Shown here: positions 17,470-31,304 of the stretch, piece after piece
Layout of the letters: each line of letters starts with the position of its first letter
Numbering within the stretch: the stretch's first letter is position 1
Source: Halomonas sp. M4R1S46
GTDB lineage: Bacteria > Pseudomonadota > Gammaproteobacteria > Pseudomonadales > Halomonadaceae
NCBI RefSeq assembly: GCF_025725685.1
Contig: NZ_CP107008.1
Coordinates: forward strand, 684,235 to 716,234
Length of the DNA stretch: 32,000 nt
Direction: 5' to 3'
Position numbers and translations under genes: made by a program
The notes under the pieces: model-generated
The model's database searches: none
What the model saw: the letters and a program-made list of their open reading frames with translations, nothing else
What the model was told of the DNA's origin: nothing

Positions 17470-18041
17470 AGAAAGAGTACGGACTGCTGGCGCCTGTTAT
17501 CGCCAAGCTGGAGAGCTGGACCTCGGAGGATGCCATACACGCCTATCACGAGTGGCTCGAGGATGGAGGAAGCTTTGAGGCCGTCTCCAACCCTGTTATC
17601 CAGTGGCATGTATGGCACGAAGATCTGCCGTGTCTTCGAGAACGATATGAGCGAGGGGATTCGCTGGCGCTACTAAAGGCGGTGGAACGCTGCGCCGTGA
17701 TAGGCCTGCCCTTTCCAACCTGGTGTAGAGAGGCGTACCTAAAGTCCTGGCGCAAGGCCTCTCAGTATGAGTGCCGCACACTGGATGAGGCATTCGATTA
17801 CGACATGAAGGGCATTAACCTTGCGAGGGCTAGAGAACGCTTCCTTCTCTCCGTGAAAGTCGCCAGTGAAGTGAGGCGTATGCTCAATTCCGGTAATACG
17901 GTGGAAAAGGCGCTTGGGGTTGTCGCTGAGCAAAACGACATCTCATTTTCGCGCGCTCGCGAGTGGTATTACGAATTGCGCGATGACCCGAGTGTTGCCC
18001 ACCTTCTTCCAGGAAAATCCGAAATCCCCCGGAAAGACTGA
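17466..18041 (+). CDS. Hypothetical protein (possible regulator; C-terminal HTH-like segment)
   Basis: 191-aa ORF starting at GTG 17466 in a GTGA overlap with the int stop. It is visibly lower in GC than its neighbours. The C-terminal VEKALGVVAEQNDISFSRAREWYYE looks helix-turn-helix-like. No family was recognised. Confidence 0.6.
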   Translation: MKKEYGLLAPVIAKLESWTSEDAIHAYHEWLEDGGSFEAVSNPVIQWHVWHEDLPCLRERYERGDSLALLKAVERCAVIGLPFPTWCREAYLKSWRKASQYECRTLDEAFDYDMKGINLARARERFLLSVKVASEVRRMLNSGNTVEKALGVVAEQNDISFSRAREWYYELRDDPSVAHLLPGKSEIPRKD

Positions 18042-18098
18042 GCGCACCGCCCCCACCATCCTTAGCCATGCCCATAAGCAACCAAGGAGCACCCTGGC

Positions 18099-18317
18099 AT
18101 GGCTGGCAACGATACCCCCACCAAGCGCCTGATCAAGCGCCCCGAGGTTCGTGAGAAGACCTCCCTCAGTGACAGCGAACTGTATCGGCAGATGGCGGCC
18201 GGGACCTTCCCACGCGCCATTCGCCTGACCCCGAACGGCAGAGCGGTCGCCTGGCTCGAGTCCGAGGTAGATGCCTGGATCGAGAGCCGCCTGGTAGACC
18301 GCGAGGGGGTGGCCTGA
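18099..18317 (+). CDS. alpA: AlpA-family (HTH_17 / MerR-like) transcriptional regulator or excisionase
   Basis: 72 aa, with SD AAGGAG 9 nt upstream. RPEVREKTSLSDSELYRQMAAGTFPRAIRLTPNGRAVAWLESEVDAWI matches the AlpA pattern (short HTH followed by W-x-x-x-E-V/I-x-x-W). Confidence 0.8.
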   Translation: MAGNDTPTKRLIKRPEVREKTSLSDSELYRQMAAGTFPRAIRLTPNGRAVAWLESEVDAWIESRLVDREGVA

Positions 18318-18409
18318 TGTTGACCGCTGACCCTACCCCCGGCTATGCTCCAACCGTCACGGCAAAATCCGTGACCCGGTTTGGCGACCGGAAATATCCA
18401 AGGCGCACC

Positions 18410-18438
18410 AGCGCCCTCCGCGAAACAGGCGCTTTTTT
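18410..18438 (+). terminator. Possible terminator after alpA
   Basis: AGCGCC (18410-18415) / GGCGCT (18428-18433) stem with a 12-nt loop, followed by TTTTTT. Confidence 0.45.
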
Positions 18439-18592
18439 CATGCCTGCACTTCGCGAATATGGCGGCTGTGCGTGGGAGACCCTCGGGTCTGCCGGTTCCC
18501 TTGGATGCCGGTTCGCCAACCTGCGTACAGCCGCCCCCAATCACTGTTTGGCGACAGTCGGGGACGGTTCCATCATCCAAGGAGCCCTACCC

Positions 18593-18763
18593 ATGAACAA
18601 CCCCACCCGCAATCCGTCTGCGCGCGCCGCTGCCCACCGGGCCATGGCGAGAGCCGCCCTGTTCAGCGACACCAGCGCCAGCACCCGCCTGAAGCGTTAC
18701 AACCACCACATCACCAAGGCCCGCGCCCTGGAAGCCCCTGCCGGCCAAGGGGAGGCATCATGA
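18593..18763 (+). CDS. Hypothetical small protein (56 aa), first gene of the replication operon
   Basis: ATG 18593 is preceded by SD AAGGAG. Its stop overlaps the next start (ATGA). Confidence 0.5.
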   Translation: MNNPTRNPSARAAAHRAMARAALFSDTSASTRLKRYNHHITKARALEAPAGQGEAS

Positions 18764-19098
18764 GCGCCTTCAACGTCTACCTGGCCCGAACTACCACTGA
18801 GATCGAGATCCACGCCCCAAGCTGGCGCGAGGCCCTCTACCGTGCGGGGCGGCCTGATGCGTGCATTGTTGCGCGACTTGGCCCCGGGAAGTTCGAGGCG
18901 ATCTTCAATCCTGACGCCCCCACAACCATCGGCTGCCGTGCCCGGTGCGCGTCCGATGCGGAGGCGCTTCGCTGGACGCTTGCGAGCGTCGCCCACCAGG
19001 TAGCCCAGAGGGAAGCCGCCCGCCGCGCCCTGGCCGAATTTGCCGACGGCGTCGAACCGGGCACCTACCAGCCGGCCGGCAAAAGGGGGCAATCATGA
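18760..19098 (+). CDS. Hypothetical protein (112 aa)
   Basis: ATGA-coupled at both ends. Coding-like amino-acid composition. No family recognised. Confidence 0.55.
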   Translation: MSAFNVYLARTTTEIEIHAPSWREALYRAGRPDACIVARLGPGKFEAIFNPDAPTTIGCRARCASDAEALRWTLASVAHQVAQREAARRALAEFADGVEPGTYQPAGKRGQS

Positions 19099-19322
19099 GC
19101 CACCTGACCCGTGACAACAGCAAGGCCGAGGACATCGAGGAGATTGTCTCGGCCATCCACGGCATCGCCCGCCTGGTCAACGAGGACCTGGCGCGCAAGC
19201 CCTCTGCGAACACCCAGCCCTTCCTCGGCGAAACCGAGCTCGGTGACTTGATGCTCGCCGTCGAGCACCTGTGCTCCTATGCCGAGGGCATTGCCGAGGA
19301 CATTGGGGAGGGCAAGTCATGA
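19095..19322 (+). CDS. Hypothetical acidic protein (75 aa)
   Basis: ATGA-coupled at both ends. Confidence 0.55.
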   Translation: MSHLTRDNSKAEDIEEIVSAIHGIARLVNEDLARKPSANTQPFLGETELGDLMLAVEHLCSYAEGIAEDIGEGKS

Positions 19323-19540
19323 CCCCGACCGACATCACCATGGACATCGGCGCCACCGGCCTGGTGGATGCCATCGATCGCACCCGCTATGCCATGGCCA
19401 AGCAGGTACCGAGTGTTGCGGATGAGCTGGCCACCAACTATGGCCCGCTGGTGCTCACTGCCCACGAACAAGCCGACCTGCGGATATTCCTCGACGAGAT
19501 GCTCCGTCGCCGGATGGGGATCCTGGAGGCGCAGCTATGA
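19319..19540 (+). CDS. Hypothetical protein (73 aa)
   Basis: ATGA-coupled at both ends. Confidence 0.55.
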   Translation: MTPTDITMDIGATGLVDAIDRTRYAMAKQVPSVADELATNYGPLVLTAHEQADLRIFLDEMLRRRMGILEAQL

Positions 19541-20061
19541 CGACCCCGCAATCGACAGCGCCCCGCCGGCAGGGCGGGGCACCTAAAGCGAGTTTTGGAA
19601 GGGCTCCACAGCAGTCTAGCGCGCTCGGCGCCGACGTGCACCGGCTGCTGGCGCGACTGGACAAGGTGAAGACCAACGGCCCGGAGCGCTGGCTGGCCTG
19701 CTGCCCTGCGCACGACGACCGCTCACCGAGCCTGGCCATCCGTGAGACCGAGGACGGCACGATCCTGGTGAAGTGCTTCACCGGCTGCCCGACCGCTGAT
19801 GTGTTGGCCGCCGTGGGCATGGAGATGTACGAGCTATTCCCCAGGCGCGACAACGATGCCTTCCGCGCCAGCAAGCGCCCCGGGGAGCGATGGGTGCCCC
19901 GGGACGTGCTGGCCGCCATCGCCCGCGAGGCGTTGGTGGTCATGCTGGCAGCTGAGGCGGTCCACGCCGGCCGGCCCCTGGAGCGTGTCGACCTGGCTCG
20001 TCTGGCCAAGGCGTCCGGCCGGCTGCGTGGAGCTGCTGAGGAGGTGGGTTGCCATGTCTGA
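19537..20061 (+). CDS. Stand-alone primase-type CHC2 zinc-finger protein
   Basis: CCPAHDDRSPSLAIRETEDGTILVKCFTGC follows the DnaG zinc-binding pattern CPFHxExTPSF...CFGC. At 174 aa it has no recognisable Toprim or primase catalytic region. It overlaps the next gene by 8 nt. Confidence 0.6.
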   Translation: MTTPQSTAPRRQGGAPKASFGRAPQQSSALGADVHRLLARLDKVKTNGPERWLACCPAHDDRSPSLAIRETEDGTILVKCFTGCPTADVLAAVGMEMYELFPRRDNDAFRASKRPGERWVPRDVLAAIAREALVVMLAAEAVHAGRPLERVDLARLAKASGRLRGAAEEVGCHV

Positions 20062-21106
20062 ACACGATGCGGGAATCAGCTGGCTCGATAGGCAGGCGGC
20101 CACGGCGACGCGGCTGCGGCCAGCTCCCAGCGATGGGCCACCCACGCCCCCAGCCACCGCCTACGAGGCGACCGCCGCCGAGCTCCAGCTGAACCCCATC
20201 AGCCTGGGTGACTTCCTGAGCCTGGACATTCCACCGCGAACCATGCTGCTGGCGCCCTGGCTGCCTACCAGCGGCCTGGCCATGGTCTATGCGCCTCGAG
20301 GCATCGGCAAGACCTGGTTTGCGATGTATGCGGGCTATGCCGTGGCCGCGGGGGGATCGTTCCTCGGCTGGGAGGCGCCAGCACCGGCGCCCGTGCTCTA
20401 CCTGGACGGCGAGATGCCGGCTATCGCGCTTCAGGAGCGGTTCGCGAGCATCATCCAGAGCACGGAGTACGAGGCGGCGCCCGAGGCCCTGCAGCTGCTG
20501 ACCCCTGACCTCCAGCCCAAGGGGATGCCGGATCTCTCGACCCTCGAGGGGCAGCTGGCGCTGGAGCCCTTCACCGATCCCGCCCGCCTGATCGTGGTGG
20601 ACAACATCTCCACTCTCTGCCGGACCGGCAAAGAGAACGAGGGGGAGAGCTGGTTGATGGTGCAGGAGTGGGCGCTGCGCATGCGGGCCCAGGGCAAGAC
20701 CGTGCTCTTCGTCCACCACGCCGGCAAGGGCGGCCAGCAGCGGGGCACCAGCCGCCGCGAGGACGTGCTGGATACCGTCATCGCGCTCCGCTATCCGAAG
20801 GGTGAGGACGAGGATGCCCAGGGCGCCAAGTTCGAGCTGCATTTCGAGAAGAACCGCGGCTTCTATGGCGAGGACGCCAAGGGGCGCGAGATCGAGCTGG
20901 TGAGCGCTCCCAGCGGGGCCACCACCTGGTCCTGGCTCCCGCTGCAGGAGAGCACCTATCAGCGAGTCGTCGACCTGCTCAATGAAGGGCTGAGCCCGAC
21001 CGAGGCGGCCCGGGAGCTGGACATCCACAAGAGCACCGCCACCCGGTACCGAAAGCGCGCCGACCGCGATGGCCTGCTGGCCAAGAAGTCAGGGGGTGAG
21101 TCATGA
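20054..21106 (+). CDS. RecA-like AAA_25/RepA-type replicative ATPase (putative helicase) with C-terminal HTH
   Basis: Walker A YAPRGIGKTW and Walker B-like LIVVDNIS are present, followed by VLFVHHAGKGGQQRGTSRRED. The C-terminus LNEGLSPTEAARELDIHKSTATRYRKRA is HTH-like. Confidence 0.75.
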   Translation: MSEHDAGISWLDRQAATATRLRPAPSDGPPTPPATAYEATAAELQLNPISLGDFLSLDIPPRTMLLAPWLPTSGLAMVYAPRGIGKTWFAMYAGYAVAAGGSFLGWEAPAPAPVLYLDGEMPAIALQERFASIIQSTEYEAAPEALQLLTPDLQPKGMPDLSTLEGQLALEPFTDPARLIVVDNISTLCRTGKENEGESWLMVQEWALRMRAQGKTVLFVHHAGKGGQQRGTSRREDVLDTVIALRYPKGEDEDAQGAKFELHFEKNRGFYGEDAKGREIELVSAPSGATTWSWLPLQESTYQRVVDLLNEGLSPTEAARELDIHKSTATRYRKRADRDGLLAKKSGGES

Positions 21107-21636
21107 GCGATCGCCCAGAGTTGCACGTTGCACCCCCTAGGGGATGCAACCCGCAACTTTCCCAAGAAGAGGGGGCAACTTTTCCCCCGTCCGATGCAAC
21201 CGGTCATGCAACCGGCAGCCTGAAAGCCTTGGCTGACAAGCGGTTGCGGGAGATAGAAAGCAACCGGGCGTGCAACTCGCCTGCAACCGAGGGGCCTGAA
21301 AGCGTGCAACTTTCGGCCGACTCGGCGACCCCTGAAGTTGCACCCGAGGCAGGACCCGAGACCGTGAGCCGGATGGACTGGTTGGAGTGGGTCACGGCCC
21401 GGGTACCGCTGGTGCGTGAGGATCGGGAATACGTTTGGTCCCGCCTGGCCACACTGCCGCCCCATGCCATGGAGCGGGCGGCCAAACGATACGTCCAGAC
21501 CTGGGCCGAGGCCGCTGCGGCCGAGCCGAAGCCCCACCGGAAGGAGAACGCCGGGCGACGTGCCGCGAACCACACCCTCCTGGCCTTGATCCAGCCGAAG
21601 TGCTGGCGCTGGAAGCAAGAGCACCGTAGGCCGTGA
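21103..21636 (+). CDS. Hypothetical protein; 5' half coincides with the iteron array
   Basis: Its ATG sits in an ATGA overlap with the helicase stop. The N-terminal 85 aa are low-complexity because they translate the TGCAAC repeats. The C-terminal part from ATG 21373 (MDWLEWVTARVPLVRED...) looks more protein-like. The true start is uncertain. Confidence 0.45.
   Translation: MSDRPELHVAPPRGCNPQLSQEEGATFPPSDATGHATGSLKALADKRLREIESNRACNSPATEGPESVQLSADSATPEVAPEAGPETVSRMDWLEWVTARVPLVREDREYVWSRLATLPPHAMERAAKRYVQTWAEAAAAEPKPHRKENAGRRAANHTLLALIQPKCWRWKQEHRRP
21120..21342. repeat. Iteron cluster, putative origin of replication
   Basis: Forward (T/A/C/G)GCAAC copies start at 21145, 21152, 21174, 21195, 21207, 21259, 21271, 21282 and 21305. 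Inverted GTTGCA copies start at 21120, 21127 and 21337, with a variant GTTGCG at 21243. CCTGAAAGC also occurs twice (about 21219 and 21294). Confidence 0.6.
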
Positions 21637-21721
21637 GCAACCAGGAGTCTGAACCATAATCCATACCCCTATCACGCCTGCCGTTGCCTACCGCTGACCC
21701 GATCGACCTGGCGGTGTGTGC

Positions 21722-22060
21722 ATGGACACACCGCGCATCAACGACTGGCTGGACTCCGAGCTCGTGCAGATCAGTCGCAAGGAGGCGGCCCTGCCAGCGG
21801 CCGTTTCCTTGCCTGAACTGGGCGATGGCAACGGCCTACCGTGGGATCTCGACGAGCTGCCCGACATCGATCTGATCACCCGGGACGGCGAGGTGTGGGC
21901 AAGGGGTACGCAAATTGCTCACGCCTTGGGCTACCACTGGCTGCCCCAGGGCCACCGACCATGTGAAGACGATGGGGCTGATCATCACGCGTCACGAACC
22001 CAACGGGATCGGCTGACACCCGCCCCACTGACCACCCCGAGCCACACCATGAGGAATTGA
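21722..22060 (+). CDS. Hypothetical protein, possibly a degraded Bro-N/antirepressor-like remnant
   Basis: DLITRDGEVWARGTQIAHALGY resembles the Bro-N/KilAC-type motif (xxGEPWFVAKDVAxALGY), but similarity is lost immediately afterwards. The SD is weak. Confidence 0.3.
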   Translation: MDTPRINDWLDSELVQISRKEAALPAAVSLPELGDGNGLPWDLDELPDIDLITRDGEVWARGTQIAHALGYHWLPQGHRPCEDDGADHHASRTQRDRLTPAPLTTPSHTMRN

Positions 22061-22202
22061 CTCGACACCTTGGGCCCGCTGGTCCCGGCGCTGAACAACA
22101 CTCGGCTTCGCTCACTCACGCTCTCGGCGGGGAGCCTTATCATTCCTGCGCCCTGTGGATAACTATGGCGAAGTTCACAATATTTTGTGCCATTTGTGGA
22201 AG

Positions 22203-22214
22203 ATATGCGCATAT
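22203..22214. promoter_or_regulatory. Perfect 12-bp palindrome ATATGCGCATAT (candidate operator)
   Basis: Read directly from the sequence. It lies in the AT-rich gap just upstream of TATAAA (22219-22224). A second inverted repeat, CACAA-TATT-TTGTG, sits at 22176-22189. Confidence 0.35.
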
Positions 22215-22233
22215 GTGCTATAAACAAGGGAGG

Positions 22234-22249
22234 CTGTATATATGGACAG
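22234..22249. promoter_or_regulatory. LexA (SOS) box-like site CTGTATATATGGACAG
   Basis: It fits the gammaproteobacterial CTGT-N8-ACAG consensus with an AT-rich centre, matching 14 of 16 positions of CTGTATATATATACAG. It lies just downstream of the -10-like TATAAA and ahead of the tape-measure/terS operon. Confidence 0.6.
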
Positions 22250-22256
22250 GTAACGT

Positions 22257-22427
22257 ATGGGGCATCCGCTAAACCTTCCACCTCGTGGCAAGCAGATGAA
22301 GCCAACCCGCCACCGACGGCGTGAGCTGTACGACATGCTCGAACGGATGGCCAACGAAGGTGATCCCCACGCCGTTGGCTGGCTCCTGTTCCTCAGTGAG
22401 CCGGTACCGAGATCTGCAGCGAAGTAA
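22257..22427 (+). CDS. Small hypothetical protein (56 aa), not in the ORF track
   Basis: Hand translation gives MGHPLNLPPRGKQMKPTRHRRRELYDMLERMANEGDPHAVGWLLFLSEPVPRSAAK*. It is preceded by a strong SD AAGGGAGG (22226-22233) and a 3-codon mini-ORF ATG GAC AGG TAA (22242-22253). Confidence 0.35.
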   Translation: MGHPLNLPPRGKQMKPTRHRRRELYDMLERMANEGDPHAVGWLLFLSEPVPRSAAK

Positions 22428-22494
22428 TACTGGAACACGCTATCCATCGCTTTCATCGCATCCGGTGCTGGCGCGAACTGAAACAGGAGGGTCA

Positions 22495-25308
22495 ATGGCC
22501 GATCTCGAGAAAACCGTCGCAATCATCTTCGAGGGCGTGGACCGGATGGGGGACGGGGTGAACTCCGCCACCCGCAAGATCGATGGCCTCGCCGGCAGTG
22601 TTCAGAGCGCTACCCAGCCGCTGGCGGATGCCACGATCGGCCTCGCCAAGTTCGAGGGCGCCCTGATCGCCGGTGGCGCCGCCGCCACAGCCTTCGCCGT
22701 GAAGTTGGCCGGTGACTTCGACACGCAGTTCCGCGAGATCGCCACGCTGATTGGCCAGCCAAGCGAGGCGCTGGGCGACTTTCGCGAGGAACTGCTGGCC
22801 TATGGGCGCGAGTCCAGCCAATCACTCGACCAGGTCAACTCGGCGGTCTACAGCGCCATCTCGGCGGGCATCGATTACACCGACTCCCTCGAGGCGGTGC
22901 GACAGGCCGAGCAGCTGGCCATTGCCGGTAAGGCCAACCTCGGGGAATCCCTGACGGTGCTGGTGTCCTCGCTCAACGCCTATGGCGTGGGCATGGAGGA
23001 GGCCGAGCGCTTCTCCGACCTGCTGTTCCAGACTGTGCGCAGCGGCCAGACTACGCTCCCCGAGCTGGGGAGCTCGCTGGCCAATGTGACAGGCCTGGCG
23101 GCCACCGCCGGCGTCAGCTTCGATGAGCTGCTCTCGGCCGTGGCCACGCTCACCGCCACCGGCTCCAGCACCAGCGAGGCCATCACGCAGGTTCGCGGGG
23201 CCATCTCCAACATCCTCAAGCCGACCAGCCAGGCAAAGGATCTGGCGGCGGATCTCGGCCTCGAGTTCAATGCCACTGCCCTGGAGTCGAAGGGCTTCGC
23301 CGGCTTCATGGAAGACGTAGGCGAGGCCACCGGGGGCAGCACGGAGAAGATGTCACTGCTGTTCGGTGACGTGAACGCCTTGAACGGGGCCCTGACGCTG
23401 ACCGGCTTGGGGGCCGAGAAGTTTGCGGAGACCATCCTCGATATGGCGGGCAGTGCTGGCGCTACGGCCGATGCCTACGGGGAGATGACCGAAGCCATCG
23501 ACAACGGCAGCCAGCGGATCCAGAACGCTATCAAGGCCGCCTTCGTCGGGTTCGGGACGCCGCTGCTGGACGAGTTCGGCAGCGTTCAGGACGCCATCGC
23601 CGCCATCTTCAATGCCATCGGCGCCTCGATCGAGTCGGGCCAGCTGTCCGGCTTCGTGGATCTCCTCGAGAAGGAGTTCCAGGGTCTCGAAAAAACCTTC
23701 CAGGAGGTGGCGCAGAATCTCCCGGATGCTCTCGAGCAGGCCGACTTCTCCAGCTTCTTCGATGGCATCGAGGCCCTACAAGATGCGGTCAGCAACCTCT
23801 TCGATGGCGCCGACCTGAGCAGTACCGACGGACTGGTCTCGGTGATCGAGACGCTGGGCCTGGGGTTCGAGGCGCTTTCCCAGTACGTGGCTGGCGCTAT
23901 CGAGGGCATTGGCCCCTTCCTCCGCCAGCTGGCCGACCTGACGCAGTTTTTCCTGGAGCTGGACCCGGCGGTGTTCGCGGCGGCCGGTACCATCGGCGGG
24001 TTATCGATCGCTATCAACACCCTGGCGACCGCGGCGTTGACCACGACCGGCGCCGTTCGCGGGCTCGCCGGGTCGGGGGGCGTGATCGCCAAGGGCACGC
24101 CAATCCTCAAGGGCATGGTCAGCGTTCTCACCGGCCCCCTCGGCCTGGCGGCGGCCGCCGCCGCGGTGGGCACCGCTGTTTACAAGGCCGGCGAGCAGTT
24201 CGTCGACCTCAATCGCGACCTGAAGGAAAGCCGCCGCGCCCACTCCGATCTGGCGGAGGCGGTCCGCGAGGGCAGGCAGGTATGGGACTACGCCATCGGC
24301 GACTACGTGGCCGCTGGTGAAGCCCAGGTGACCCTGCAGGACCGGGTCAACGCCAGCCAGGAATCCCTGGCCGACTGGGTGCGCAGCCTGGGGGAGACCT
24401 CGACGGAGACCGAGCGGAATGAGCGGGCTCTACGATCAGCTGCCGCCCAGTACACCAACTGGGATCGTGTAGTCGAGGAAGCCTCGAAGAGCAGCGAGTC
24501 GTTCAACCTGGCGCAGGAAAAAAACGCCGATATTCTTCGCGATGTGCTCGAGGCCATCGGCCCCCTCGAGGATGGCTGGAAACGGGTGGCTGATGGTGTC
24601 TACGAGAACGTCATCAACACCGCAGAGCTTGAAAATGCCTACCAGAAGGTAGCAGACGCCTTCGATGAGGGGCTGATCTCCGAAGAGCAGTTCAAGAACC
24701 TGACGGACTACTACGAGACCCTCAAATCCGGGGCTGACGCCGGTGTAGAAGGCAACAAGGACCTCGCCGATGCTGCGCTGAAAACCGAAAAGGCGATCCT
24801 CGAGGAGCGCAAGGCGGTCCTGGCGACCGAACAGGCGCTCGAGGAGATGGCCAGCAACGAGAACATCAAGGCCATGGAGTTCACCGCCGAGATCAAGGTG
24901 GCCGAGGCCGAGGCCGAGGCGCGCAAGGTCGAGGCAGTATTCAACAGCATAGGGACCGCCGTCGAGTCGACGGGGGAAACCCTGTCGTCGATGTTCGGCA
25001 CCTTGGGTCAGTTCGACTCACGCACCTCCAGCGGTTTCCGGGAGCTGGAGGACATCGTCCAGGACGAAGCGAAGCGCCGCGACAAGCTGATCAACTCGCA
25101 AACCAAGCACCTGGATGCCATGACCGACAACCTGAAGGCCAGGACGGAGGCCCTCCGGAATGGCGACGGGCTGGTCAAGATCGACTCCACCGGCCTGGAG
25201 CCGGCGCTGGAGATGATCCTCTGGGAGATCCTCGAGAAGATCCAGCTACGCGCCAACGCCGAGGGCCAGGAGTTCCTGCTCGGCCTCAACTCAGGATCGA
25301 GCGTATGA
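22495..25308 (+). CDS. Phage tail tape-measure-like protein (TP901-family core type)
   Basis: 937 aa from ATG 22495 (SD AGGAGGG).
- N-terminal third: blocks typical of the tape-measure core (FREIATLIG, AVYSAISAGIDY, LAIAGKANLGESL, LFQTVRSGQTTLPELGSSLANVTGLAATAGVSFDELLSAVATLTATG, GAISNILKPTSQAKDLAADLGLEF, LFGDVNALNGALTLTG).
- Centre: Gly/Ala-rich hydrophobic segments (VFAAAGTIGGLSIAINTLATAALTTTGAV..., LTGPLGLAAAAAAVGTAVY).
- C-terminal third: coiled-coil-like. Confidence 0.85.
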   Translation: MADLEKTVAIIFEGVDRMGDGVNSATRKIDGLAGSVQSATQPLADATIGLAKFEGALIAGGAAATAFAVKLAGDFDTQFREIATLIGQPSEALGDFREELLAYGRESSQSLDQVNSAVYSAISAGIDYTDSLEAVRQAEQLAIAGKANLGESLTVLVSSLNAYGVGMEEAERFSDLLFQTVRSGQTTLPELGSSLANVTGLAATAGVSFDELLSAVATLTATGSSTSEAITQVRGAISNILKPTSQAKDLAADLGLEFNATALESKGFAGFMEDVGEATGGSTEKMSLLFGDVNALNGALTLTGLGAEKFAETILDMAGSAGATADAYGEMTEAIDNGSQRIQNAIKAAFVGFGTPLLDEFGSVQDAIAAIFNAIGASIESGQLSGFVDLLEKEFQGLEKTFQEVAQNLPDALEQADFSSFFDGIEALQDAVSNLFDGADLSSTDGLVSVIETLGLGFEALSQYVAGAIEGIGPFLRQLADLTQFFLELDPAVFAAAGTIGGLSIAINTLATAALTTTGAVRGLAGSGGVIAKGTPILKGMVSVLTGPLGLAAAAAAVGTAVYKAGEQFVDLNRDLKESRRAHSDLAEAVREGRQVWDYAIGDYVAAGEAQVTLQDRVNASQESLADWVRSLGETSTETERNERALRSAAAQYTNWDRVVEEASKSSESFNLAQEKNADILRDVLEAIGPLEDGWKRVADGVYENVINTAELENAYQKVADAFDEGLISEEQFKNLTDYYETLKSGADAGVEGNKDLADAALKTEKAILEERKAVLATEQALEEMASNENIKAMEFTAEIKVAEAEAEARKVEAVFNSIGTAVESTGETLSSMFGTLGQFDSRTSSGFRELEDIVQDEAKRRDKLINSQTKHLDAMTDNLKARTEALRNGDGLVKIDSTGLEPALEMILWEILEKIQLRANAEGQEFLLGLNSGSSV

Positions 25309-25781
25309 GCAAGAAAACGCCCCTCCAGGGGGGGCTGGGTGACTCTGGCGCTGAAGACAAGCCGGCCGGGTATTGGCAGCTGGTGACGAAGCTGGCCGTC
25401 GCGAACCTGGCCGAGAAGAAGCATCGCCGCCAGCGGCTGGCGCACCTGGAAGCCCTGCGCGCCCTGGTGAAGGACCCGAGGGGAGTGGACTGCCCTGAAA
25501 TCGAGGCCGCTGGGCGGGCGCTGGCTGAGGCGCCGGAGGTGGCGATTCTGGAGCCATTCAATGCCTTTTCTGCTGCGGTGGCGGCTCGGGCCCGCGAAAC
25601 AACAGACCTGGGGGAGGGGCAGGCACTGAGTCACCTGTCCACGCGCGTGATGGAGGAGATGACCGCCTTGAGTGAGGCCATTGATGCGCAGCTGGCGGCC
25701 AGCAATGAAGCGGCCCTTATTCGGGCTCAGGCGCTTCGCTTGATGGAAGAGCAGAAGAAGGGGCCGGGGGTGCTTCATTGA
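25305..25781 (+). CDS. Hypothetical protein, paralog A
   Basis: 158 aa, with an ATGA overlap with the tape-measure stop. It shares GV(D/S)CP...AAG.AL, PF.AF and GEG...L..R.M..M..L blocks with the next gene. Confidence 0.6.
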   Translation: MSKKTPLQGGLGDSGAEDKPAGYWQLVTKLAVANLAEKKHRRQRLAHLEALRALVKDPRGVDCPEIEAAGRALAEAPEVAILEPFNAFSAAVAARARETTDLGEGQALSHLSTRVMEEMTALSEAIDAQLAASNEAALIRAQALRLMEEQKKGPGVLH

Positions 25782-25914
25782 GCGCGGCTGCGAGCATCTC
25801 GCTACTAGCCGGGGGCATGGTACATGTGCCACCCGCCGCTCTGCTGGCGCCTGAACGCCCCGGCCTCCTGGGCCAGCCGCGCCCTCGAACGAAAGCAAGG
25901 GGGAGGGGGTATTG

Positions 25915-26349
25915 ATGCCGACCAGCATGATCATCGAACTGGGCGAACGCGAGGCCGCCGCCCGCGCCCGCCGCGACTATCACCACCAGCGCTTCGACCG
26001 GGTGCTGGACAACCTCAAGGCGCTGGGCGCCCGATCCCCGGGCGTGTCCTGTCCGAAAGTCCAGGCCGCCGGCCTGGCGCTGTCGAAGGCCTCCCGTGGC
26101 GAGGTGCAAAAACCCTTCATGGCCTTCGCTGACGCGCTGCTCGAGTACGCCCGCACCGAACCTGAAAAAGACCAGGGGGAGGGGGTGACGCGTCTGGCCA
26201 GCCGGGCCATGGGCCATATGCGCGAACTGGCACACCACGTTGACCATGAGGTCACGGCGCAGCGAGAGCTCCAGTTATTCGCGCACTTGCATGAGCAGGC
26301 GCGCCAGCAGCTGGGTGAGGCGTCCCAGCCGCGAGGGGCGGGGGCATGA
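25915..26349 (+). CDS. Hypothetical protein, paralog B
   Basis: 144 aa from ATG 25915 ([15 protein letters not shown]). Paralogous to 25305-25781: GVSCPKVQAAGLALSKA vs GVDCPEIEAAGRALAEA; PFMAFADAL vs PFNAFSAAV. Confidence 0.6.
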   Translation: MPTSMIIELGEREAAARARRDYHHQRFDRVLDNLKALGARSPGVSCPKVQAAGLALSKASRGEVQKPFMAFADALLEYARTEPEKDQGEGVTRLASRAMGHMRELAHHVDHEVTAQRELQLFAHLHEQARQQLGEASQPRGAGA

Positions 26350-26471
26350 GCGCCACCGCGCCCCAATCCCTGACGGCGGCGGCTGGTGCGTGTCAGCGGC
26401 AGAGCGCCGAGCTGGCGCTGGGCGCTCCGGCAGCGTCCTCGCGCGCTCGCCAGGCTTCAGCCGGCAGAAAA

Positions 26472-26494
26472 TCGCGGGTCCTTCTGGCGGCCCC
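26472..26494 (+). repeat. 23-bp repeat copy 1 (TCGCGGGTCCTTCTGGCGGCCCC)
   Basis: It matches 29825-29847 at 22 of 23 positions in direct orientation. It lies in the apparently non-coding stretch upstream of terS. Confidence 0.6.
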
Positions 26495-26687
26495 TACCCC
26501 GTCCACGGGGACGCAGAGTCCCGGAGTTCGACAAAATTTCGGTGCCCCTGGGTGCTCCACCGCAGGTGGCAGCAAGCCCAGGCATGGCGCGGGATCTGAG
26601 CTGTACGAGCTGAGCATGGCGGCACGAGGATCGGCCGCCTCGATGTACAGGTGAAGGAGGAGCGCCGCTGGCGCTGACAGGCAGACG

Positions 26688-27197
26688 ATGGGCGAGGTGA
26701 TCGGACGCGAACAGGCCTACCACTGGTCGATCAGCCGCATCGCCGAAGCGATCGGTCGCGACCGGCGCACGGTGGCGACGCTGATCAAGGATGCCGGGAT
26801 CCCGCCGGCCGGTACCCGTCGCGGGAATCCCGTGTACCGGCTGGGTGATGTGGTCGACGCGATAAGCACCGACCGCCGCCCCGCCGCCAGTGGTATCGAC
26901 ATAAACGACCTGATGCCGCAGGACCGCAAGGCCTGGTACCAGTCGGAGAACGAGCGGGTGAAGCTGGAGCGCGAGCTGCGCCACCTGGTGCCGGTGGACG
27001 ATGTCCAGCGAGAGATGGCCGCCCTGGCCAAGGCCATGGCCTCCAGCCTCGACAGCCTGGCCGACATGCTCGAGCGGGATGCCGGGCTGCCGCCGGAGGC
27101 GATTGAGATGGTCGAGCGTGTGACCGACGCCATTCGCGAGCAGATGTACCGCGCGATCATCGAAAACGACGACGAAGACGCCGCCGCGGAAGCGTGA
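26688..27197 (+). CDS. terS: Nu1-like small terminase subunit (winged-HTH DNA-packaging protein)
   Basis: SISRIAEAIGRDRRTVATLIKDAGIPPAGTRRGNPVYRLGDVVDAI parallels lambda Nu1 (KKQLADIFGASIRTIQNWQEQGMPVLRGGGKGNEVLYDSAAVIKWY). It is followed by a coiled region ENERVKLERELRHLVPVDDVQREM, typical of this TerS family. The C-tail is acidic. Confidence 0.68.
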   Translation: MGEVIGREQAYHWSISRIAEAIGRDRRTVATLIKDAGIPPAGTRRGNPVYRLGDVVDAISTDRRPAASGIDINDLMPQDRKAWYQSENERVKLERELRHLVPVDDVQREMAALAKAMASSLDSLADMLERDAGLPPEAIEMVERVTDAIREQMYRAIIENDDEDAAAEA

Positions 27198-27242
27198 CGG
27201 CCACCGCCGGCGCCGCCGGCCAACGAGAAGGAGAGCAGCACC

Positions 27243-28310
27243 ATGACCACTGCGACGAAAAGTAAGGCGCCGGCCGCGGCGGAAAGCTGGAGCACCTGGC
27301 TCGAGCAGCTCGACCAACTCCAGGAGGAGCGCGCCGAGATCACAGGCCTGGGCGAGGCCCGCAAGATGCTGGAGCGCGCCAAGATGGGCGTCCAGTATGT
27401 CATCCGCCTGGCCGATCACTACCACTACCCGGGCCGCTTCAAGCATTCCAGTGCCGAAGACGACACCGAGGTTCTGCTGGAACTGATGAGGCATATCCGC
27501 GCCGATACAAGTCGCGCCCTTCAGGCGACGAACTGGCACGACCAATCGGCGGAGCGCCAGGCCTACATCAAGGATCTGGACGCCCGAGCGAAGCGGGCCG
27601 CCGCCAACTTGCAGAAGGCGGCCGAAGAAGCCGCAGAGCTGGAGCATGCCCGCGGGGAAGTCGATCAGCGTCTCGAGGATCTGGAGGCCAAGGCGCCGAA
27701 GGCCTCGGCAACCAGCCTGGCCGCCCTGCGCAAGGAGCGCGACGCCGCCACCGCCGAGCGTGACCGGATCGCCAAGTCGCTGGGCAACATGACAGCGGAT
27801 GACAGCCCGCTGGCGCTGGCGCGGGAAGCCGAGCAAACCGCCCAGGAACGCCTCGATGAAGCGGAGGCACTGCTGGCCATGGGTGAGGCCAATGACGAGG
27901 ACGTGAAGGCCGCGAAGAGCGAGGCGGACAAGGCCCACAAGGCGCTGGAGGCGCGTCAGGCCGACCACCGCAGCCAGGATGCCGCCCGGCGCGGCATGTC
28001 GCGCAAGCTGGAGCAGGTCGACAGTCGCCTGGAAACCCTGAGCCGGGCCTATCGCCAGGCGCTGGGGCGTGTGCGGCATGCCGACCTGGCGGCGCTCGAA
28101 GGCGAGATTGTCGAGGAGATCGAGCGCATCGCCCAGCAACGCCTCCAGGCCCTGGCCGCGATCTATGCCGACCTGGAGGAGGCCGAGCCGGGCAACTCAT
28201 ACGGCCCCGCTCGCCTCGAGGTGAAACTGCCCCACCTCCACCACCACCGGGAGGCCGACATGCTCAACGGCCACGGCCTGACGATCACCGCCTATGGGCG
28301 GGAGGAGTGA
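27243..28310 (+). CDS. Coiled-coil protein (355 aa), function unknown
   Basis: SD GAGAAGGAGAG lies upstream. Long A/E/R/L/K heptad-like stretches occupy the central ~200 aa. No enzymatic motif was seen. Confidence 0.65.
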   Translation: MTTATKSKAPAAAESWSTWLEQLDQLQEERAEITGLGEARKMLERAKMGVQYVIRLADHYHYPGRFKHSSAEDDTEVLLELMRHIRADTSRALQATNWHDQSAERQAYIKDLDARAKRAAANLQKAAEEAAELEHARGEVDQRLEDLEAKAPKASATSLAALRKERDAATAERDRIAKSLGNMTADDSPLALAREAEQTAQERLDEAEALLAMGEANDEDVKAAKSEADKAHKALEARQADHRSQDAARRGMSRKLEQVDSRLETLSRAYRQALGRVRHADLAALEGEIVEEIERIAQQRLQALAAIYADLEEAEPGNSYGPARLEVKLPHLHHHREADMLNGHGLTITAYGREE

Positions 28311-28313
28311 CCC

Positions 28314-28571
28314 ATGCCCAATTCAAGCCCATATCGCAGTGCCGCCTATCGCAAGGCAGCGCGCGCCGCGGCCTTCAGCCGCATCAAGGCGGAGGAAGAG
28401 CGCACGCCGGAGCGCATCGAGGAAGATCTGGCCGCCGCTCGCCAGAGAGTCGAGGAGCTGGAGCGGGAGCTGGCAGACGCCAAGCACAAAGATGAGGAGC
28501 CAGTGGAGGCCCGGCTAGACATCAATCGCATCTATGCCCGGCAGAATGGCCGGAAGGGGGAGCGGGCATGA
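28314..28571 (+). CDS. Hypothetical charged helical protein (85 aa)
   Basis: SD GGAGGAG lies upstream. Its stop overlaps the next start (ATGA). Confidence 0.5.
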   Translation: MPNSSPYRSAAYRKAARAAAFSRIKAEEERTPERIEEDLAAARQRVEELERELADAKHKDEEPVEARLDINRIYARQNGRKGERA

Positions 28572-28822
28572 TCGTCACCCGACCCCGCGGAGCCATCGTT
28601 ACCAACCCCGCTCGGCGCACCGCGGCCGAGCTGGACCAGCCAAACCTCCGCTACGCGGCACCGCTGGACCGGTGCCGGCAGCACCAGGTGGAACTCTATA
28701 CCCGCGGCGGCCGCCGCTTTGCCCGGTTGTTCGGCGAAGACCGCGAAGCCCTCCAGGCGCGTGCCGATCGCTGGCGCGCGCATATCTCGCCCAGCCTCGA
28801 GCAGCGCTGGCCAGAATCCTGA
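28568..28822 (+). CDS. Hypothetical basic protein (84 aa)
   Basis: ATGA-coupled to the previous gene and followed by a terminator. Confidence 0.5.
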   Translation: MIVTRPRGAIVTNPARRTAAELDQPNLRYAAPLDRCRQHQVELYTRGGRRFARLFGEDREALQARADRWRAHISPSLEQRWPES

Positions 28823-28866
28823 CCGTGGCTGGTTCCAGGGTGCCCGGGTCTCGTCAGCCCGGGCTT

Positions 28867-28895
28867 GGGGTCACCATATCGGTGGCCCCTTTTTT
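28867..28895 (+). terminator. Rho-independent terminator closing the tape-measure/terS operon
   Basis: GGGGTCACC-ATATC-GGTGGCCCC (9-bp stem with one G-U pair) followed by TTTTTT. An additional GCCCGGG...CCCGGGC hairpin lies just upstream (28841-28863). Confidence 0.75.
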
Positions 28896-28983
28896 CACCG
28901 TCGACCGCTGCCCCGCTGTAGGGCGCCGCCGAACGCTACCGCGCCAGCCTGCGTAATGGGCAACCACCATCGGAGGCCGTGCC

Positions 28984-29250
28984 ATGCCGATGATCAATGA
29001 AGAGATCACCCGCCACCCTGTGGAGTACCGCCGTGAGCGCCTCGAGGAGGAGCGAGACCGTCTGGAGCGGCGCCTGACCTGGGCAGTGAATCGCAAGGAG
29101 GCCAGGCAGGTCGAGCGCCTGACCCGGCAGCTGGCCGAGATCGATCGGGAACTGGAGCGGCCACCCGAGGACCTGGAGGGGCGGGGCCGGGCGACATCGC
29201 TTCGCCGGCAGTACGGCGCGGAGTTGTGTGACGCCCTTGGGTGGCACTGA
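28984..29250 (+). CDS. Hypothetical charged helical protein (88 aa)
   Basis: ATG 28984 has a GGAGG-containing upstream sequence. The protein is R/E-rich. Its stop overlaps the next ATG by one base. Confidence 0.5.
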   Translation: MPMINEEITRHPVEYRRERLEEERDRLERRLTWAVNRKEARQVERLTRQLAEIDRELERPPEDLEGRGRATSLRRQYGAELCDALGWH

Positions 29251-29524
29251 TGACTGCCGAGGCCCCGAGCTCCCTCCTCCTGCGCGGCGCCCCGGTGCCT
29301 GATGACCTCTGGGACCCGGCAGACTGCCGCGCGCTGTGGATCGCCGCCCTGGAGATGTACCTGCGCGACGCGATCGCCGCGGCCAAGGGGAGCGAACACA
29401 GGGAGGCGGTAGCGGCCCTTCACGACCTGATGGGCGGCTGGAGATGCTGGCGCGGCTGTGCGAGCCCCTGGGGCTGGAGGTGGAGTCAGTCGCCGAGGGC
29501 ATGAGGGCCAGGGCCTACTCCTGA
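29250..29524 (+). pseudogene. Hypothetical gene interrupted by an apparent -1 frameshift near 29.43 kb
   Basis: The frame from ATG 29250 reads plausibly to ...AVAALHDLMGG, then becomes W/R/C-rich (WRCWRGCASPWGWRW). The -1 frame continues plausibly as RLEMLARLCEPLGLEVESVAEGMRARAYS* and ends at 29524. Confidence 0.4.
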
Positions 29525-29769
29525 GCCTTGTTCGTGGCCTTGTCGCGCTCGTTCATCTCGGTGACAGCCCGGTGGACGTCATCCTCTTGTGTGGCTTGGA
29601 CCCACCCACCCAGGACGCCGATGAAGATGATGATGCTGGCCACCAGGTAGGCCCACCAAGGGCCGGGCCAGTCGCGCCACAGCCCGAAGGCGATGGGGAT
29701 GATCACCGCCGCTGTGAGGCACCAGCCTGCCGCCGCGTTCTTCTGCTGATCGAGTTTGTTCTCTGCCAT
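29515..29769 (-). CDS. Small two-TM membrane protein (holin-like architecture)
   Basis: 84 aa with two hydrophobic spans (WCLTAAVIIPIAFGLW and WWAYLVASIIIFIGVLGGWV). The C-tail is highly charged (EDDVHRAVTEMNERDKATNKAQE). Confidence 0.6.
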   Translation of the reverse strand: MAENKLDQQKNAAAGWCLTAAVIIPIAFGLWRDWPGPWWAYLVASIIIFIGVLGGWVQATQEDDVHRAVTEMNERDKATNKAQE

Positions 29770-29824
29770 GTCTCGCTCCCTGCGCTGAGTGGCTTTCAGT
29801 CTAGCCTAGCGAGGCTCGATGAAT

Positions 29825-29847
29825 TCGCGGGTCCTTCTGGAGGCCCC
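29825..29847 (+). repeat. 23-bp repeat copy 2 (TCGCGGGTCCTTCTGGAGGCCCC)
   Basis: It matches 26472-26494 at 22 of 23 positions. It lies in the 122-bp gap between the BRCT gene stop and the membrane-protein start. Confidence 0.6.
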
Positions 29848-29891
29848 GCCGCCGTCATGACCGGATGCGGGGCTGGCGCTGGGTGCCGGAG

Positions 29892-30530
29892 TTATAGCCA
29901 GTTAGCCCAGTGGCGCTCGCTGATCAGATGAATGTCGCGGCCATCGCGGCGCAACTCCACGGCGTGCTGGATCTTGCGTCCGTAGTTCGACTGGGCCCAG
30001 TCATCGCTGCCCAAGTTGCCGATAACAACGAAGTGGGTGGCGCGGCTGGGGCTTTTCTGGGGCTGTCCGCCGCGCTGCACGATCTCGGCCTCGCACTCGC
30101 GGCGCGTACCAGTGACGAAGCGCCCGGTCAGCACGAAGTTAGAACCTTCGAATACGACATCCGGCACCGGGTCGCAAAGGGGTAGGGCAGTGGATTGCCG
30201 GCTGGAGCTGGAGCCGCCTTGGGTGGAGCCACCGCCAGTATAGTCGAGCAGCAGTCCGATCAGTTCGCCCTCTTCCTCGGCATCCAGAACGCCATCGCCG
30301 AGCATTTCCTCGAGGCGAGGGAAGAGCACGTTGAAAGGCCAGACGGCCAGGGCCTCGGGACGCTCTCCAAGCCACTGGAGCAGGTATTCGGCCTCGGCCT
30401 GGTTGACCGAGCCATCGGCGAGCATCCCGCGGGCCAGCCCGCACAGCTCATTGGCATCCCGGGTGGTGTTCCTGGCCATGCTGAGCCGGCGCGTGACCGG
30501 CTGGCCGTGGTGGTCGAGTTGGATAGGCAT
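29892..30530 (-). CDS. TerB-like N-domain / BRCT C-domain protein
   Basis: 212 aa from ATG at 30530 (SD GGGAGAG). The N-terminal ARGMLADGSVNQAEAEYLLQWL fits the TerB/DjlA-N type DGxxxxxExxxL motif. After a G/S-rich linker, the C-terminal FVLTGRFVTGTRRECEAEIVQRGGQPQKSPSRATHFVVIG...GRKIQHAVELR...ISERHW parallels the LigA-type BRCT domain. Confidence 0.7.
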   Translation of the reverse strand: MPIQLDHHGQPVTRRLSMARNTTRDANELCGLARGMLADGSVNQAEAEYLLQWLGERPEALAVWPFNVLFPRLEEMLGDGVLDAEEEGELIGLLLDYTGGGSTQGGSSSSRQSTALPLCDPVPDVVFEGSNFVLTGRFVTGTRRECEAEIVQRGGQPQKSPSRATHFVVIGNLGSDDWAQSNYGRKIQHAVELRRDGRDIHLISERHWANWL

Positions 30531-30746
30531 GGGACTCTCCCTTGTTATGGTTCCCTGCGGGCCGTGGGCCCGCAAGGTAGTTTGGCAAAGGGAGGTGAGG
30601 TCTGCCCGTACTGGTGCCCAGGAGCCGCGGGGAGGGGTACCCGTTTCGGGTACGCTTTCCAGGTGGTCCTCGCCGTCGCTATGGCCGGAGGTAGCTGCTG
30701 GCGCTGTTTGTTGATGTGTTCAGCTGGGATCAGGACCCGACTCAAT

Positions 30747-30914
30747 TCAGCGGTCTATGGCCGCGACGTTGTAGAAGATCCTGCCATCGGGGGCCTTCCG
30801 CCAGATGCGCCCCTCAGGCCATGTGCCGTCCTTCCGCTTGTGGTCGATCGCTGAGCGCGAGTAGCCGTAGAGCTCCGCCAGCTTGTTCCGAAGAACCCAT
30901 TTGTTCTGTGCCAT
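30747..30914 (-). CDS. Excisionase-like small DNA-binding protein (55 aa), not in the ORF track
   Basis: Hand translation of the minus strand gives MAQNKWVLRNKLAELYGYSRSAIDHKRKDGTWPEGRIWRKAPDGRIFYNVAAIDR*. This fits a lambda Xis-like pattern (HTH, then W..G....K...GR.....A). Confidence 0.6.
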   Translation of the reverse strand: MAQNKWVLRNKLAELYGYSRSAIDHKRKDGTWPEGRIWRKAPDGRIFYNVAAIDR

Positions 30915-31085
30915 CGTTGCCCCCTAGTGCCGTGCTTCAACACATCAATCATGACAACCCGCCGCACCTCCTCCAGACTCCCGCTACGCTTTCCAGATGG
31001 TCACGCCAACACCATGGCCGTAGGTGGTACTGGCAGTACGGGTGCCGAGCGCTCGCTAACAGGTAGACCTCTAGGAGGGGGAGGT

Positions 31086-31304
31086 ATGTCCACCGGGAAA
31101 CTGATGTCCCTGGAGGAGTGGCGGAAGGCTCGGTTTGCAGGCGAGCCGCCAGCCATGTCGACCATTCGCAAGTGGTGTCGGGAAGGCCACGTGCCTTCGA
31201 AGAAGATCGGGGGTAGCTGGTTCATCGATCTGGATGCTGAAGCGCGACAGACAGGGAATCCCTTGGCCGATGCCGTGCTGAATGGGGAACGGAGGATCGA
31301 CTAA
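31086..31304 (+). CDS. Excisionase-like small DNA-binding protein (72 aa)
   Basis: ATG 31086 is preceded by [57 protein letters not shown] resembles lambda Xis (LTLQEWNARQRRPRSLETVRRWVRECRIFPPPVKDGREYLF). Confidence 0.65.
   Translation: MSTGKLMSLEEWRKARFAGEPPAMSTIRKWCREGHVPSKKIGGSWFIDLDAEARQTGNPLADAVLNGERRID

Follow-up and report, generated by a model that had tools for sequence, protein, structure and literature searches.

The tape measure gene and its surroundings

The window analysed here is a stretch of 32,000 nucleotides from Halomonas sp. M4R1S46 (NCBI RefSeq assembly GCF_025725685.1, contig NZ_CP107008.1, positions 684,235 to 716,234 of the forward strand). It contains a genomic island of 15,769 bp (positions 16168–31936 of the window) with a GC content of 65.8%, as compared to 70.7% in the host flank. 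On the plus strand of this island, at 22495–25308, lies a gene for a tail tape measure protein (TMP) of 937 amino acids, which makes up 17.8% of the island. We lean towards regarding this gene as the property of a Halomonas phage satellite related in type to phage-inducible chromosomal islands (PICIs) and P4, rather than as the leftover of a prophage.

The protein matches the Pfam family PF10145 over amino acids 99–285 (E 3.6e-32; 112 bits against a cut-off of 33.2), the NCBIfam model TIGR01760 (tape_meas_TP901) over amino acids 60–380 (E 2.9e-39; 135 bits against a cut-off of 28.8), 17 tape-measure families of PHROGs (best E 4.8e-62), and a solved TMP chain in the PDB (9g8s_w, E 2.7e-7). This profile check confirms the identity proposed in a first-pass annotation of the window, which had also given the coordinates and the length of the gene correctly. 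The three-part build described there is recovered as well, with the PF10145/TIGR01760 core, hydrophobic Ala/Gly-rich stretches starting at about amino acids 489–493 and 537–544, and a C-terminal third that displays a weak match of the SMC coiled-coil type, behind which there is no direct coiled-coil prediction. Family membership predicts that the protein occupies the lumen of the tail and sets the tail length. A GGAGG motif precedes the ATG at 22495 by 6 nt, and the stop codon is located at 25306–25308. A longer GTG start at 22321 is unsupported, because all homologs begin with MADLEK.

The neighbours of the TMP gene in the island are a small leader open reading frame (ORF) of 56 amino acids and two satellite-specific genes for helical paralogs, not chaperone or distal tail-tip genes. 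This bears on the context of the gene and leaves the assignment of the protein family untouched. In scans of the island ORFs against Pfam, PHROGs and NCBIfam, none matched tube, chaperone, terminator, distal-tail or baseplate families, and no capsid gene, large terminase subunit (TerL), lysis gene or other tail gene was detected, in agreement with the first-pass annotation, which had described the TMP gene as the only tail gene of the element. By its integrase with attachment (att) sites, AlpA, an own replicon and a small terminase subunit (TerS) without TerL, the island is, as far as its predicted gene content goes, a phage satellite of the PICI/P4 type. Such elements are further characterized by a lack of capsid, tail and lysis genes; here a complete TMP is present, and no capsid or lysis gene was found.

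Relation to the tape measures of phages

A one-protein scan of genome contigs with the TMP returned four loci, L009 (numbering of the comparison loci used in this study) among them. The nearest relatives, with 69–75% identity and lengths of 931–934 amino acids, are TMPs of complete lambda-like Halomonas prophages: those of Halomonas borealis (L009; P0002; 75%, 931 amino acids), H. koreensis (L013; 74%, 931 amino acids) and H. salina (L014; 69%, 932 amino acids). A Geoalkalibacter prophage (L007; 42%, 890 amino acids) and Marinobacter phage PS3 (L004/L008; 36.5%, 911 amino acids) are more distant. The phage relatives are flanked by tube, chaperone and tip genes, i.e. they reside in complete tail modules. 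The alignments with L009 and L013 span more than 930 amino acids from end to end, and the first 12 residues (MADLEKTVAIIF) as well as the last 37 are kept across satellites and phages. As the window TMP aligns end to end with TMPs of tail modules and both termini are conserved, it is a complete TMP. Collinearity with phage TMPs, the conserved N- and C-terminal ends and ratios of nonsynonymous to synonymous substitution (dN/dS) like those of phage TMPs (see below) also make it unlikely that a tape-measure fold was repurposed for another role, as the first-pass annotation had considered. Divergence from the phage relatives is mosaic and concentrated at amino acids 300–400 and 550–900, past the hydrophobic segments; the same pattern is displayed by comparisons of phage TMPs with each other.

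The prophages of L013, L014 and L018 carry a lambda-like set of genes comprising GpA terminase, a portal of the lambda family, a ClpP/S49 protease, a gpE-type capsid protein, gpFII, gpZ, a 330-amino acid tube protein, a chaperone of 165–171 amino acids, the TMP and also tip proteins; annotations of gpW and gpD (HDPD) exist for some of the three, not for all. L009 displays PHROG matches to portal, protease, major head and tail-fibre proteins. Between tail chaperone and TMP, a SocA_Panacea gene is inserted in L014 (8790–9542) and an AbiEii gene in L018 (8743–9480), and this gap may be a hotspot for defence genes inside the tail module.

At the nucleotide level, the window is homologous to the prophages from position 22495, exactly the start codon, up to 25265–25290, 18–43 nt before the stop codon; the flanks are unrelated. 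In a neighbour-joining (NJ) distance tree, satellite TMPs are found at no fewer than three places among the phage TMPs: a phage clade is the sister group of the window TMP, the satellite TMP of Halomonas sp. 1513 is nested in another phage clade, and a third clade consists mostly of satellite TMPs. Satellites with TMPs only 42–54% identical have TerS proteins that are 71–83% identical and copies of one of the helical paralogs (paralog B, see below) that are 56–63% identical. Because TerS and paralog B stay closer than the TMPs, and because the satellite TMPs are scattered in the tree, the tmp cassette has, judging by these sequences, evidently been replaced repeatedly. This fits a need for compatibility with the tail parts of a helper phage, or mimicry of them.

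The TerS of the island belongs to the DUF1441 family, as do the TerS proteins of lambdoid cos phages (e.g. cdtI and mEp460), and ten phage contigs combine a DUF1441 TerS at the contig start with the same TMP family. These two observations argue for one source lineage of satellite TerS and TMP, and a lambda-like siphovirus lineage with DUF1441 TerS and this TMP family is the likely helper type by homology. Phage PS3 was ruled out as the helper type for packaging, its TerS being of the Nu1 type, not DUF1441.

Recurrence in satellite islands and selection on the gene

The module of TMP, helical paralogs A and B, TerS and a 355-amino acid protein recurs in at least eight islands of Halomonadaceae. 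Leader ORF, TMP, A, B, TerS and the 355-amino acid protein follow each other in this order in Halomonas sp. 1513 (L001), in two islands of Billgrantia montanilacus (L005, L006) and in a 17-kb metagenome contig of IMG/VR (L020/L036); contigs with paralog B coincide with TMP contigs also in sp. C05BenzN and sp. LBP4. The two Billgrantia satellites reside on two contigs of one assembly and have TMPs that are 88% identical. Besides the shared module, L006 contains head-tail connector genes (Phage_connect_1, Phage_HCP) and a fragment of a TerL nuclease, and L001 contains a homolog of the tail-completion protein gpZ (13814–14365; 48.7 bits, above the Pfam cut-off) and, in its accessory region (17096–18442), Fic and SocA_Panacea genes, which are likely toxin-antitoxin or defence cargo.

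Islands of other designs, in metagenomes among other places, have no more than TMP and TerS in common with this module. Thioalkalivibrio ALJ1 and ALJ16 have 9-kb islands with both genes and with tRNA genes at the borders, and a TARA Oceans scaffold (L030) holds a TMP and TerS island of another design. In Halomonas sp. Y3 (L016; CP099975.1), an island of 10.7 kb (3262–14018) encodes a fusion of ClpP protease and capsid (601 amino acids), a 926-amino acid TMP, a 159-amino acid protein and a TerS of the Nu1 type; going by these genes, its backbone is like that of the window island and its morphogenesis kit is different. L032 combines TerS and TMP with a capsid protein (7724–9178), and L139 combines them with a portal of the lambda family (13673–15106).

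For a census of TMP neighbourhoods, which the first-pass annotation had proposed, an alignment query (A5) was run against metagenome and IMG/VR contigs, and marker proteins were then searched by tblastn. Loci with tube, chaperone, gpM-like or tip neighbours were classed as tail modules, and those with adjacent TerS and no tail markers as satellite-like. Among 131 unique loci, 99 are located in tail modules, 7 are orphans of the satellite-like class and 25 were left unclassed.

The dN/dS between the window TMP and phage TMPs is 0.17–0.30, as compared to 0.25 between two satellite copies and 0.19–0.24 between phages. The gene is under purifying selection and is maintained.

The late operon

A LexA (SOS) box, CTGTATATATGGACAG, is located at 22234–22249 on the plus strand, within an intergenic stretch of 44% GC that constitutes the promoter region of a late operon; it is the sole match to CTGT-N8-ACAG in the window. 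The leader ORF (22257–22427, plus strand) starts 8 nt past the box and encodes a conserved 56-amino acid product with the motif GD..A.GWLL; in L001, L005 and L006, equivalents of 60 amino acids immediately precede the TMP gene. Box and leader ORF are followed by the TMP gene, and terS (26688–27197) resides downstream of it in the same operon, so that the TMP gene is the first large gene of an operon with an SOS box and precedes terS, both as originally described. In L001 the box is found in the same place with one mismatch, and the motif also precedes Halomonas recA in L013. A DUF1654 gene of L014 has a LexA box (20000–20015) directly in front of it, and the motif likewise precedes the DUF1654 gene of L018, which heads an umuD/umuC-like operon (17160–19107). 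Given the perfect box, the copy in L001 and the same motif before recA and the DUF1654 genes, SOS control of the late operon is predicted. A box in L009 (18124–18139) is one base off that of the island.

Paralog A, a helical protein of 158 amino acids (25305–25781, plus strand), is paralogous to paralog B by alignment, and its start and the stop codon of the TMP gene overlap as ATGA, which suggests translational coupling. Paralog B (25915–26349, plus strand; 144 amino acids) is a satellite-restricted protein, whose 13 homolog clusters stem exclusively from Halomonadaceae or metagenomes, and is predicted by AlphaFold2 (AF2) to form four helices (pLDDT 90). A Foldseek search of the PDB with this model gave nothing below E 0.1 and only generic helical bundles at E 0.15 or worse, and a sequence profile search of the PDB with both paralogs gave no match. 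The idea that A and B are a chaperone pair resembling G/GT was discarded, as hhalign comparison to the chaperone and the gpM-like protein of helper-type phages yielded less than 1% probability (0.1% for the chaperone profile). A reading of TMP and both paralogs as a defence system was likewise rejected, there being no match to PADLOC families.

A small conserved ORF (26346–26654, plus strand), with 64–67% identity to its counterparts in L001 and L020, precedes terS. TerS itself is encoded at 26688–27197 on the plus strand and matches PF07278 (DUF1441; E 1.7e-41) and phrog_141 (E 6.7e-49). The 355-amino acid coiled-coil protein that follows (27243–28310, plus strand) is 43–66% identical to its equivalents in L001, L005, L006 and L020. 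It has no match in Pfam, PHROGs, NCBIfam, phage genomes or IMG/VR; its PADLOC matches were dismissed as coiled-coil noise, and a single-sequence AF2 model displays long helices throughout at pLDDT 60, which is too weak for a fold search. The protein may be a modifier of capsid or packaging; an alteration of the capsid is considered because the island has about one third of the length of a phage genome of 40–48 kb. Small ORFs precede a terminator-like hairpin followed by a T-run (28867–28889, plus strand), the probable end of the operon.

A 35-nt direct repeat (26469–26503 and 29822–29856, 86% identical) is found upstream of terS and again past the cluster of small genes; it was sought in the other loci and found in none of them.

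Boundaries and backbone of the island

In the host DNA left of the island, two identical tRNA-Lys(UUU) genes are arranged in tandem (15875–16056, plus strand; ARAGORN, Rfam). The putative attL core, TACGGGGGCATATCTGGGGGCA (16168–16189, plus strand), is a 22-nt direct repeat, 95% identical to the putative attR core (31915–31936, plus strand). A repeat of the tRNA-Lys 3′ end was sought as attR and not found; the att core is located 112 nt downstream of the tRNA. The same att site is used in Halomonas sp. Y3 (L016) by a different island, with equivalent repeats at L016 positions 3262 and 14000, an integrase 88.7% identical to that of the window and a left flank with 85% identity, all of which supports the boundaries given here.

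The left part of the island encodes a tyrosine integrase of the P4 type (16222–17469, plus strand) with the domains Arm-DNA-bind_3, Phage_int_M and Phage_integrase, and a regulator or excisionase of the AlpA family (18099–18317, plus strand; PF05930, E 9e-17). Next to the latter is a C4-type antisense RNA cassette (18343–18541, plus strand; Rfam), which consists of an a1/b1 target element (18343–18395; RF03163, 51.7 bits) and the C4 RNA (18455–18541; RF01695, 76.6 bits), both above the gathering score. By its Rfam matches, this is a predicted RNA immunity cassette like c4 of P1/P7 and CI of P4. C4 follows AlpA also in L001 (5130–5216) and L016 (5661–5747). A match to isrK overlaps the cassette of the window.

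Replication functions are represented by a primase-like protein with a CHC2 zinc finger (19537–20061, plus strand; phrog_6088 DNA primase, E 9.6e-14; PF01807, E 2.5e-4, below the cut-off) and by an AAA_25 ATPase similar to RepA/DnaB with a C-terminal helix-turn-helix motif (20054–21106, plus strand; PF13481, E 3.1e-27), whose ATG at 20054 stands behind AGGAGG. A conserved satellite protein of phrog_852 (21103–21636, plus strand; E 5.2e-10) is 62% identical to the product of the gene directly upstream of the TMP operon in L001.

To the right of the late operon, an 84-amino acid hydrophobic protein common to other satellites of the family (29515–29769, minus strand) has 52–53% identity to a protein that L005 and L006 encode on the minus strand, between paralog B and terS, and an accessory gene at 29892–30575 encodes a phrog_3989 protein with a BRCT-like C-terminus. 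The right end holds an excisionase of the DUF1233 family (30747–30914, minus strand; PF06806, E 2.3e-8), 93% identical to the product of the last gene of the L001 island, and a second gene of the AlpA family (31347–31583, plus strand; PF05930, E 2.1e-9). Together with a 72-amino acid ORF (31086–31304), these form a cluster of three excisionase- or AlpA-like genes (30747–31583). A 43-nt direct repeat, 81% identical between its copies, is located upstream of the late operon (21889–21931) and adjoining attR (31818–31860); a palindrome inside it differs in both arms between the copies (GCAAATTGC versus CCCCAAATTGGGG). This repeat could be a binding site for a protein or a packaging site. Profile searches of the island ORFs for homologs of Sid, Psu, Delta, Rpp and Ppi gave none.

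Proposed role: a satellite tape measure in helper-built tails

Based on this dataset, we hypothesize that the gene encodes a working, satellite-specific alternative TMP that is built into tails made by a helper phage, the length of which is essentially unchanged. We regard this explanation, which draws on analogy to known satellites, as moderately probable. The island beside tRNA-Lys would be held quiet by its control region of integrase, AlpA and C4 antisense RNA until DNA damage frees LexA from the box upstream of the late operon, upon which the leader ORF, TMP, paralog A, paralog B, TerS and the 355-amino acid coiled-coil protein would be expressed in this order. A lambda-like siphovirus helper, suggested by homology, would provide large terminase, capsid, tail tube, tail chaperone and tip complex. 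The satellite TerS would steer packaging of the 15.8-kb island, and the satellite TMP would replace the helper TMP inside the helper-built tails or compete with it, so that the transducing particles would carry chimeric tails of practically the same length. That the satellite TMP is incorporated into tails at all is suggested by the experiments on Vibrio cholerae elements described below. The satellite may benefit by staying compatible with its current helper, or by escaping factors directed against the helper TMP.

Several points weigh against this explanation. The chaperone and baseplate hub which may mediate selective incorporation in the Vibrio elements were not detected in the island. Tails of lambda-like phages assemble apart from heads, and as separately made tails with the satellite TMP would also join helper heads, an advantage specific to the satellite is not obvious. 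The SOS box is a motif match, at least one match to CTGT-N8-ACAG occurs somewhere in 27% of shuffled windows, and the box is absent from L005 and L006. Both the expression of the operon and the content of the particles are predictions from sequence. Finally, the best 120 matches listed for each include no second TMP and no helper-type tail tube on the same chromosome (4,218,477 bp), which is a weak negative as to the presence of a helper.

A broader version of this hypothesis may be put forward tentatively. A broad group of satellites, as yet undescribed, could have TMP and TerS as its minimal kit and exploit lambda-like siphoviruses in Halomonadaceae, Ectothiorhodospiraceae and marine bacteria, with the tmp gene repeatedly swapped for that of the current helper lineage, and with the TMP deciding which tails and which recipient cells can be used. 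For example, the TMP could mark tails for satellite heads with the aid of paralogs A and B, or could pass defences or exclusion directed against the helper TMP.

A related possibility, compatible with chimeric tails and in our opinion unlikely on the present data, is that the TMP is specialized for entry. As the first protein to reach the recipient, it would let satellite DNA past blocks that act on the helper TMP, such as superinfection exclusion in helper lysogens or defences that sense TMPs. Exclusion and defence are known to target TMPs, as with Tab, Rta and, reportedly, HK97 gp15/PtsG, and both the frequent turnover of the cassette and the location of the mosaic divergence after the hydrophobic segments are in line with such a role. 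However, phages display this mosaic pattern among themselves too, so that it does not set satellites apart; the helper-type prophages yielded no exclusion gene; and tails with the satellite TMP would serve helper heads as well.

It is less probable still, and not specifically supported, that the gene acts mainly by interference, i.e. in parasitism or defence and not in the satellite's own tails. A decoy of this kind would co-assemble with the helper TMP, or titrate its chaperone or tip complex, spoil helper tails and lower the yield. Up to about 75% identity to helper-type TMPs and the conserved termini make mixed oligomers plausible, mimicry would need repeated swapping to match phage TMPs, as is seen, and blockers of assembly that target TMPs are known (Rta in PLE11, Tab in JBD26). 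On the other hand, transfer of the satellite itself needs tails, which would make simple poisoning self-harming; the dN/dS is like that of phage TMPs over the whole length, where a decoy would need its interaction surfaces only; and the defence families in PADLOC include none for the TMP or either paralog.

That the satellite TMP re-sets the tail length, giving satellite particles with tails unlike those of the helper, was suggested by the first-pass annotation and appears very improbable. There are precedents in other satellites (PLEs and EPIPs, see below), and the actual helper of this strain could have a TMP of another length. Nevertheless, the window TMP exceeds the nearest phage TMPs (931–934 against 937 amino acids) by at most 6 residues, which corresponds to less than 1 nm at 0.15 nm per residue, and across the tree satellite TMPs stay within about 0–30 amino acids of the neighbouring phage TMPs.

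We give hardly any credence to the view that the island is a decayed lambda-like prophage with the TMP gene as an inert, possibly untranscribed, survivor of the tail module: the closest relatives of the gene are indeed prophage TMPs, and stray head or tail genes occur in related islands (gpZ in L001, connectors and TerL fragment in L006, portal in L139), but the ORF is intact with phage-like dN/dS, the module recurs across many islands in one non-phage order conserved across genera, the backbone is of the P4/PICI type (integrase, AlpA, C4 RNA, own replicon), homology to prophages is limited to the TMP gene, and the island has defined 22-nt att repeats at about one third of the length of a phage genome.

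Comparison with known satellites

Satellites have long been held to tamper with capsid size and DNA packaging only. Described PICIs and P4 have, to our knowledge, no tail gene. The window island shares with EcCICFT073-type PICIs and P4-like elements an integrase by a tRNA gene, AlpA, a replicon with primase/helicase, a packaging gene (TerS) and a size of about 15 kb, and with P4 immunity of the antisense-RNA type; it differs in that control of the late operon apparently involves a LexA box and not AlpA alone. In this respect it resembles the LexA-controlled packaging operon of Staphylococcus aureus pathogenicity islands (SaPI operon I), reportedly described by Ubeda et al. in 2007, in which morphogenesis and packaging genes of a satellite, terS included, likewise stand behind an SOS box. 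SaPI operon I contains no tail gene, however, and hosts and proteins are unrelated.

Predicted tmp genes are present in some capsid-forming PICIs (cf-PICIs) and in elements similar to the PICI-like elements (PLEs) of Vibrio cholerae (PMC12987554), which, like the window island, are satellites outside Vibrio with a tmp gene. Besides TMP and TerS, the related islands L016 and L032 encode capsid proteins. With no capsid, portal, protease or connector gene, the window island lacks what defines cf-PICIs; L016, L032 and L139 have such genes. EPIPs of Mycolicibacterium aichiense carry TMP and TerS, and the tails of their particles differ from those of the helper (bioRxiv 10.64898/2025.12.02.691453). 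Unlike the window island, they have an actinobacterial host, a serine integrase, extra head genes and tails of two to three times the length, and no homology links the two.

The first-pass annotation had stated that no described satellite family carries only a tape measure. This does not hold for the TMP as such, which is known from PLEs, some cf-PICIs and EPIPs; for a PICI-like island with TMP as sole tail gene it stands as far as our literature searches go. In these we came across no report of a PICI/P4-like family that has the TMP and no other tail gene, of such a family parasitising lambda-like siphoviruses, of a satellite TMP near-identical in length and up to 75% identical to helper-type TMPs, or of gene-precise cassette turnover of tmp. 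Genome annotators should take an orphan tape measure that lies next to a small terminase and an integrase as the mark of a satellite and not as prophage debris. A culturable Halomonas with a complete genome is a tractable system in which to ask why a satellite has a tape measure of its own, how tail assembly chooses between TMPs, and how TMP variation figures in the arms race with defences that target TMPs.

Experimental demonstration of tail alteration by a satellite is so far limited to the PLEs of Vibrio cholerae, whose TMP, tail assembly chaperone and baseplate hub BhuB replace those of phage ICP1 to give chimeric tails (Nature 2026, PMC12987554). The PLE TMP is incorporated into PLE virions, and deletion of tmp cut transduction of PLE11 by about 99.9% (PMC12987554); PLE tails are 10 nm shorter than those of the helper. 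PLEs and the window island have in common that the satellite brings its own TMP and takes, or in the window island would take, the rest of the tail from the helper, and that tmp is conserved across the satellite family. They differ in that ICP1 is a lytic myovirus and the likely helper type of the window island a temperate lambda-like siphovirus, and in that the PLE TMP is about 20% identical to that of ICP1 and 95 amino acids shorter, as against 69–75% identity at equal length for the window TMP and helper-type TMPs. Counterparts of the PLE chaperone and hub, and of Rta of PLE11, were not detected in the window island, and the two backbones display no sequence relationship. Manipulation of tails was first shown in 2025–26 for PLEs on a lytic myovirus. 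The window island points to an independent origin of this strategy in PICI/P4-like elements, which exploit temperate siphoviruses and have a simpler gene set with the TMP as sole tail gene; a clear evolutionary trace is left in the exchange of tmp, within the gene, with helper-type phages.

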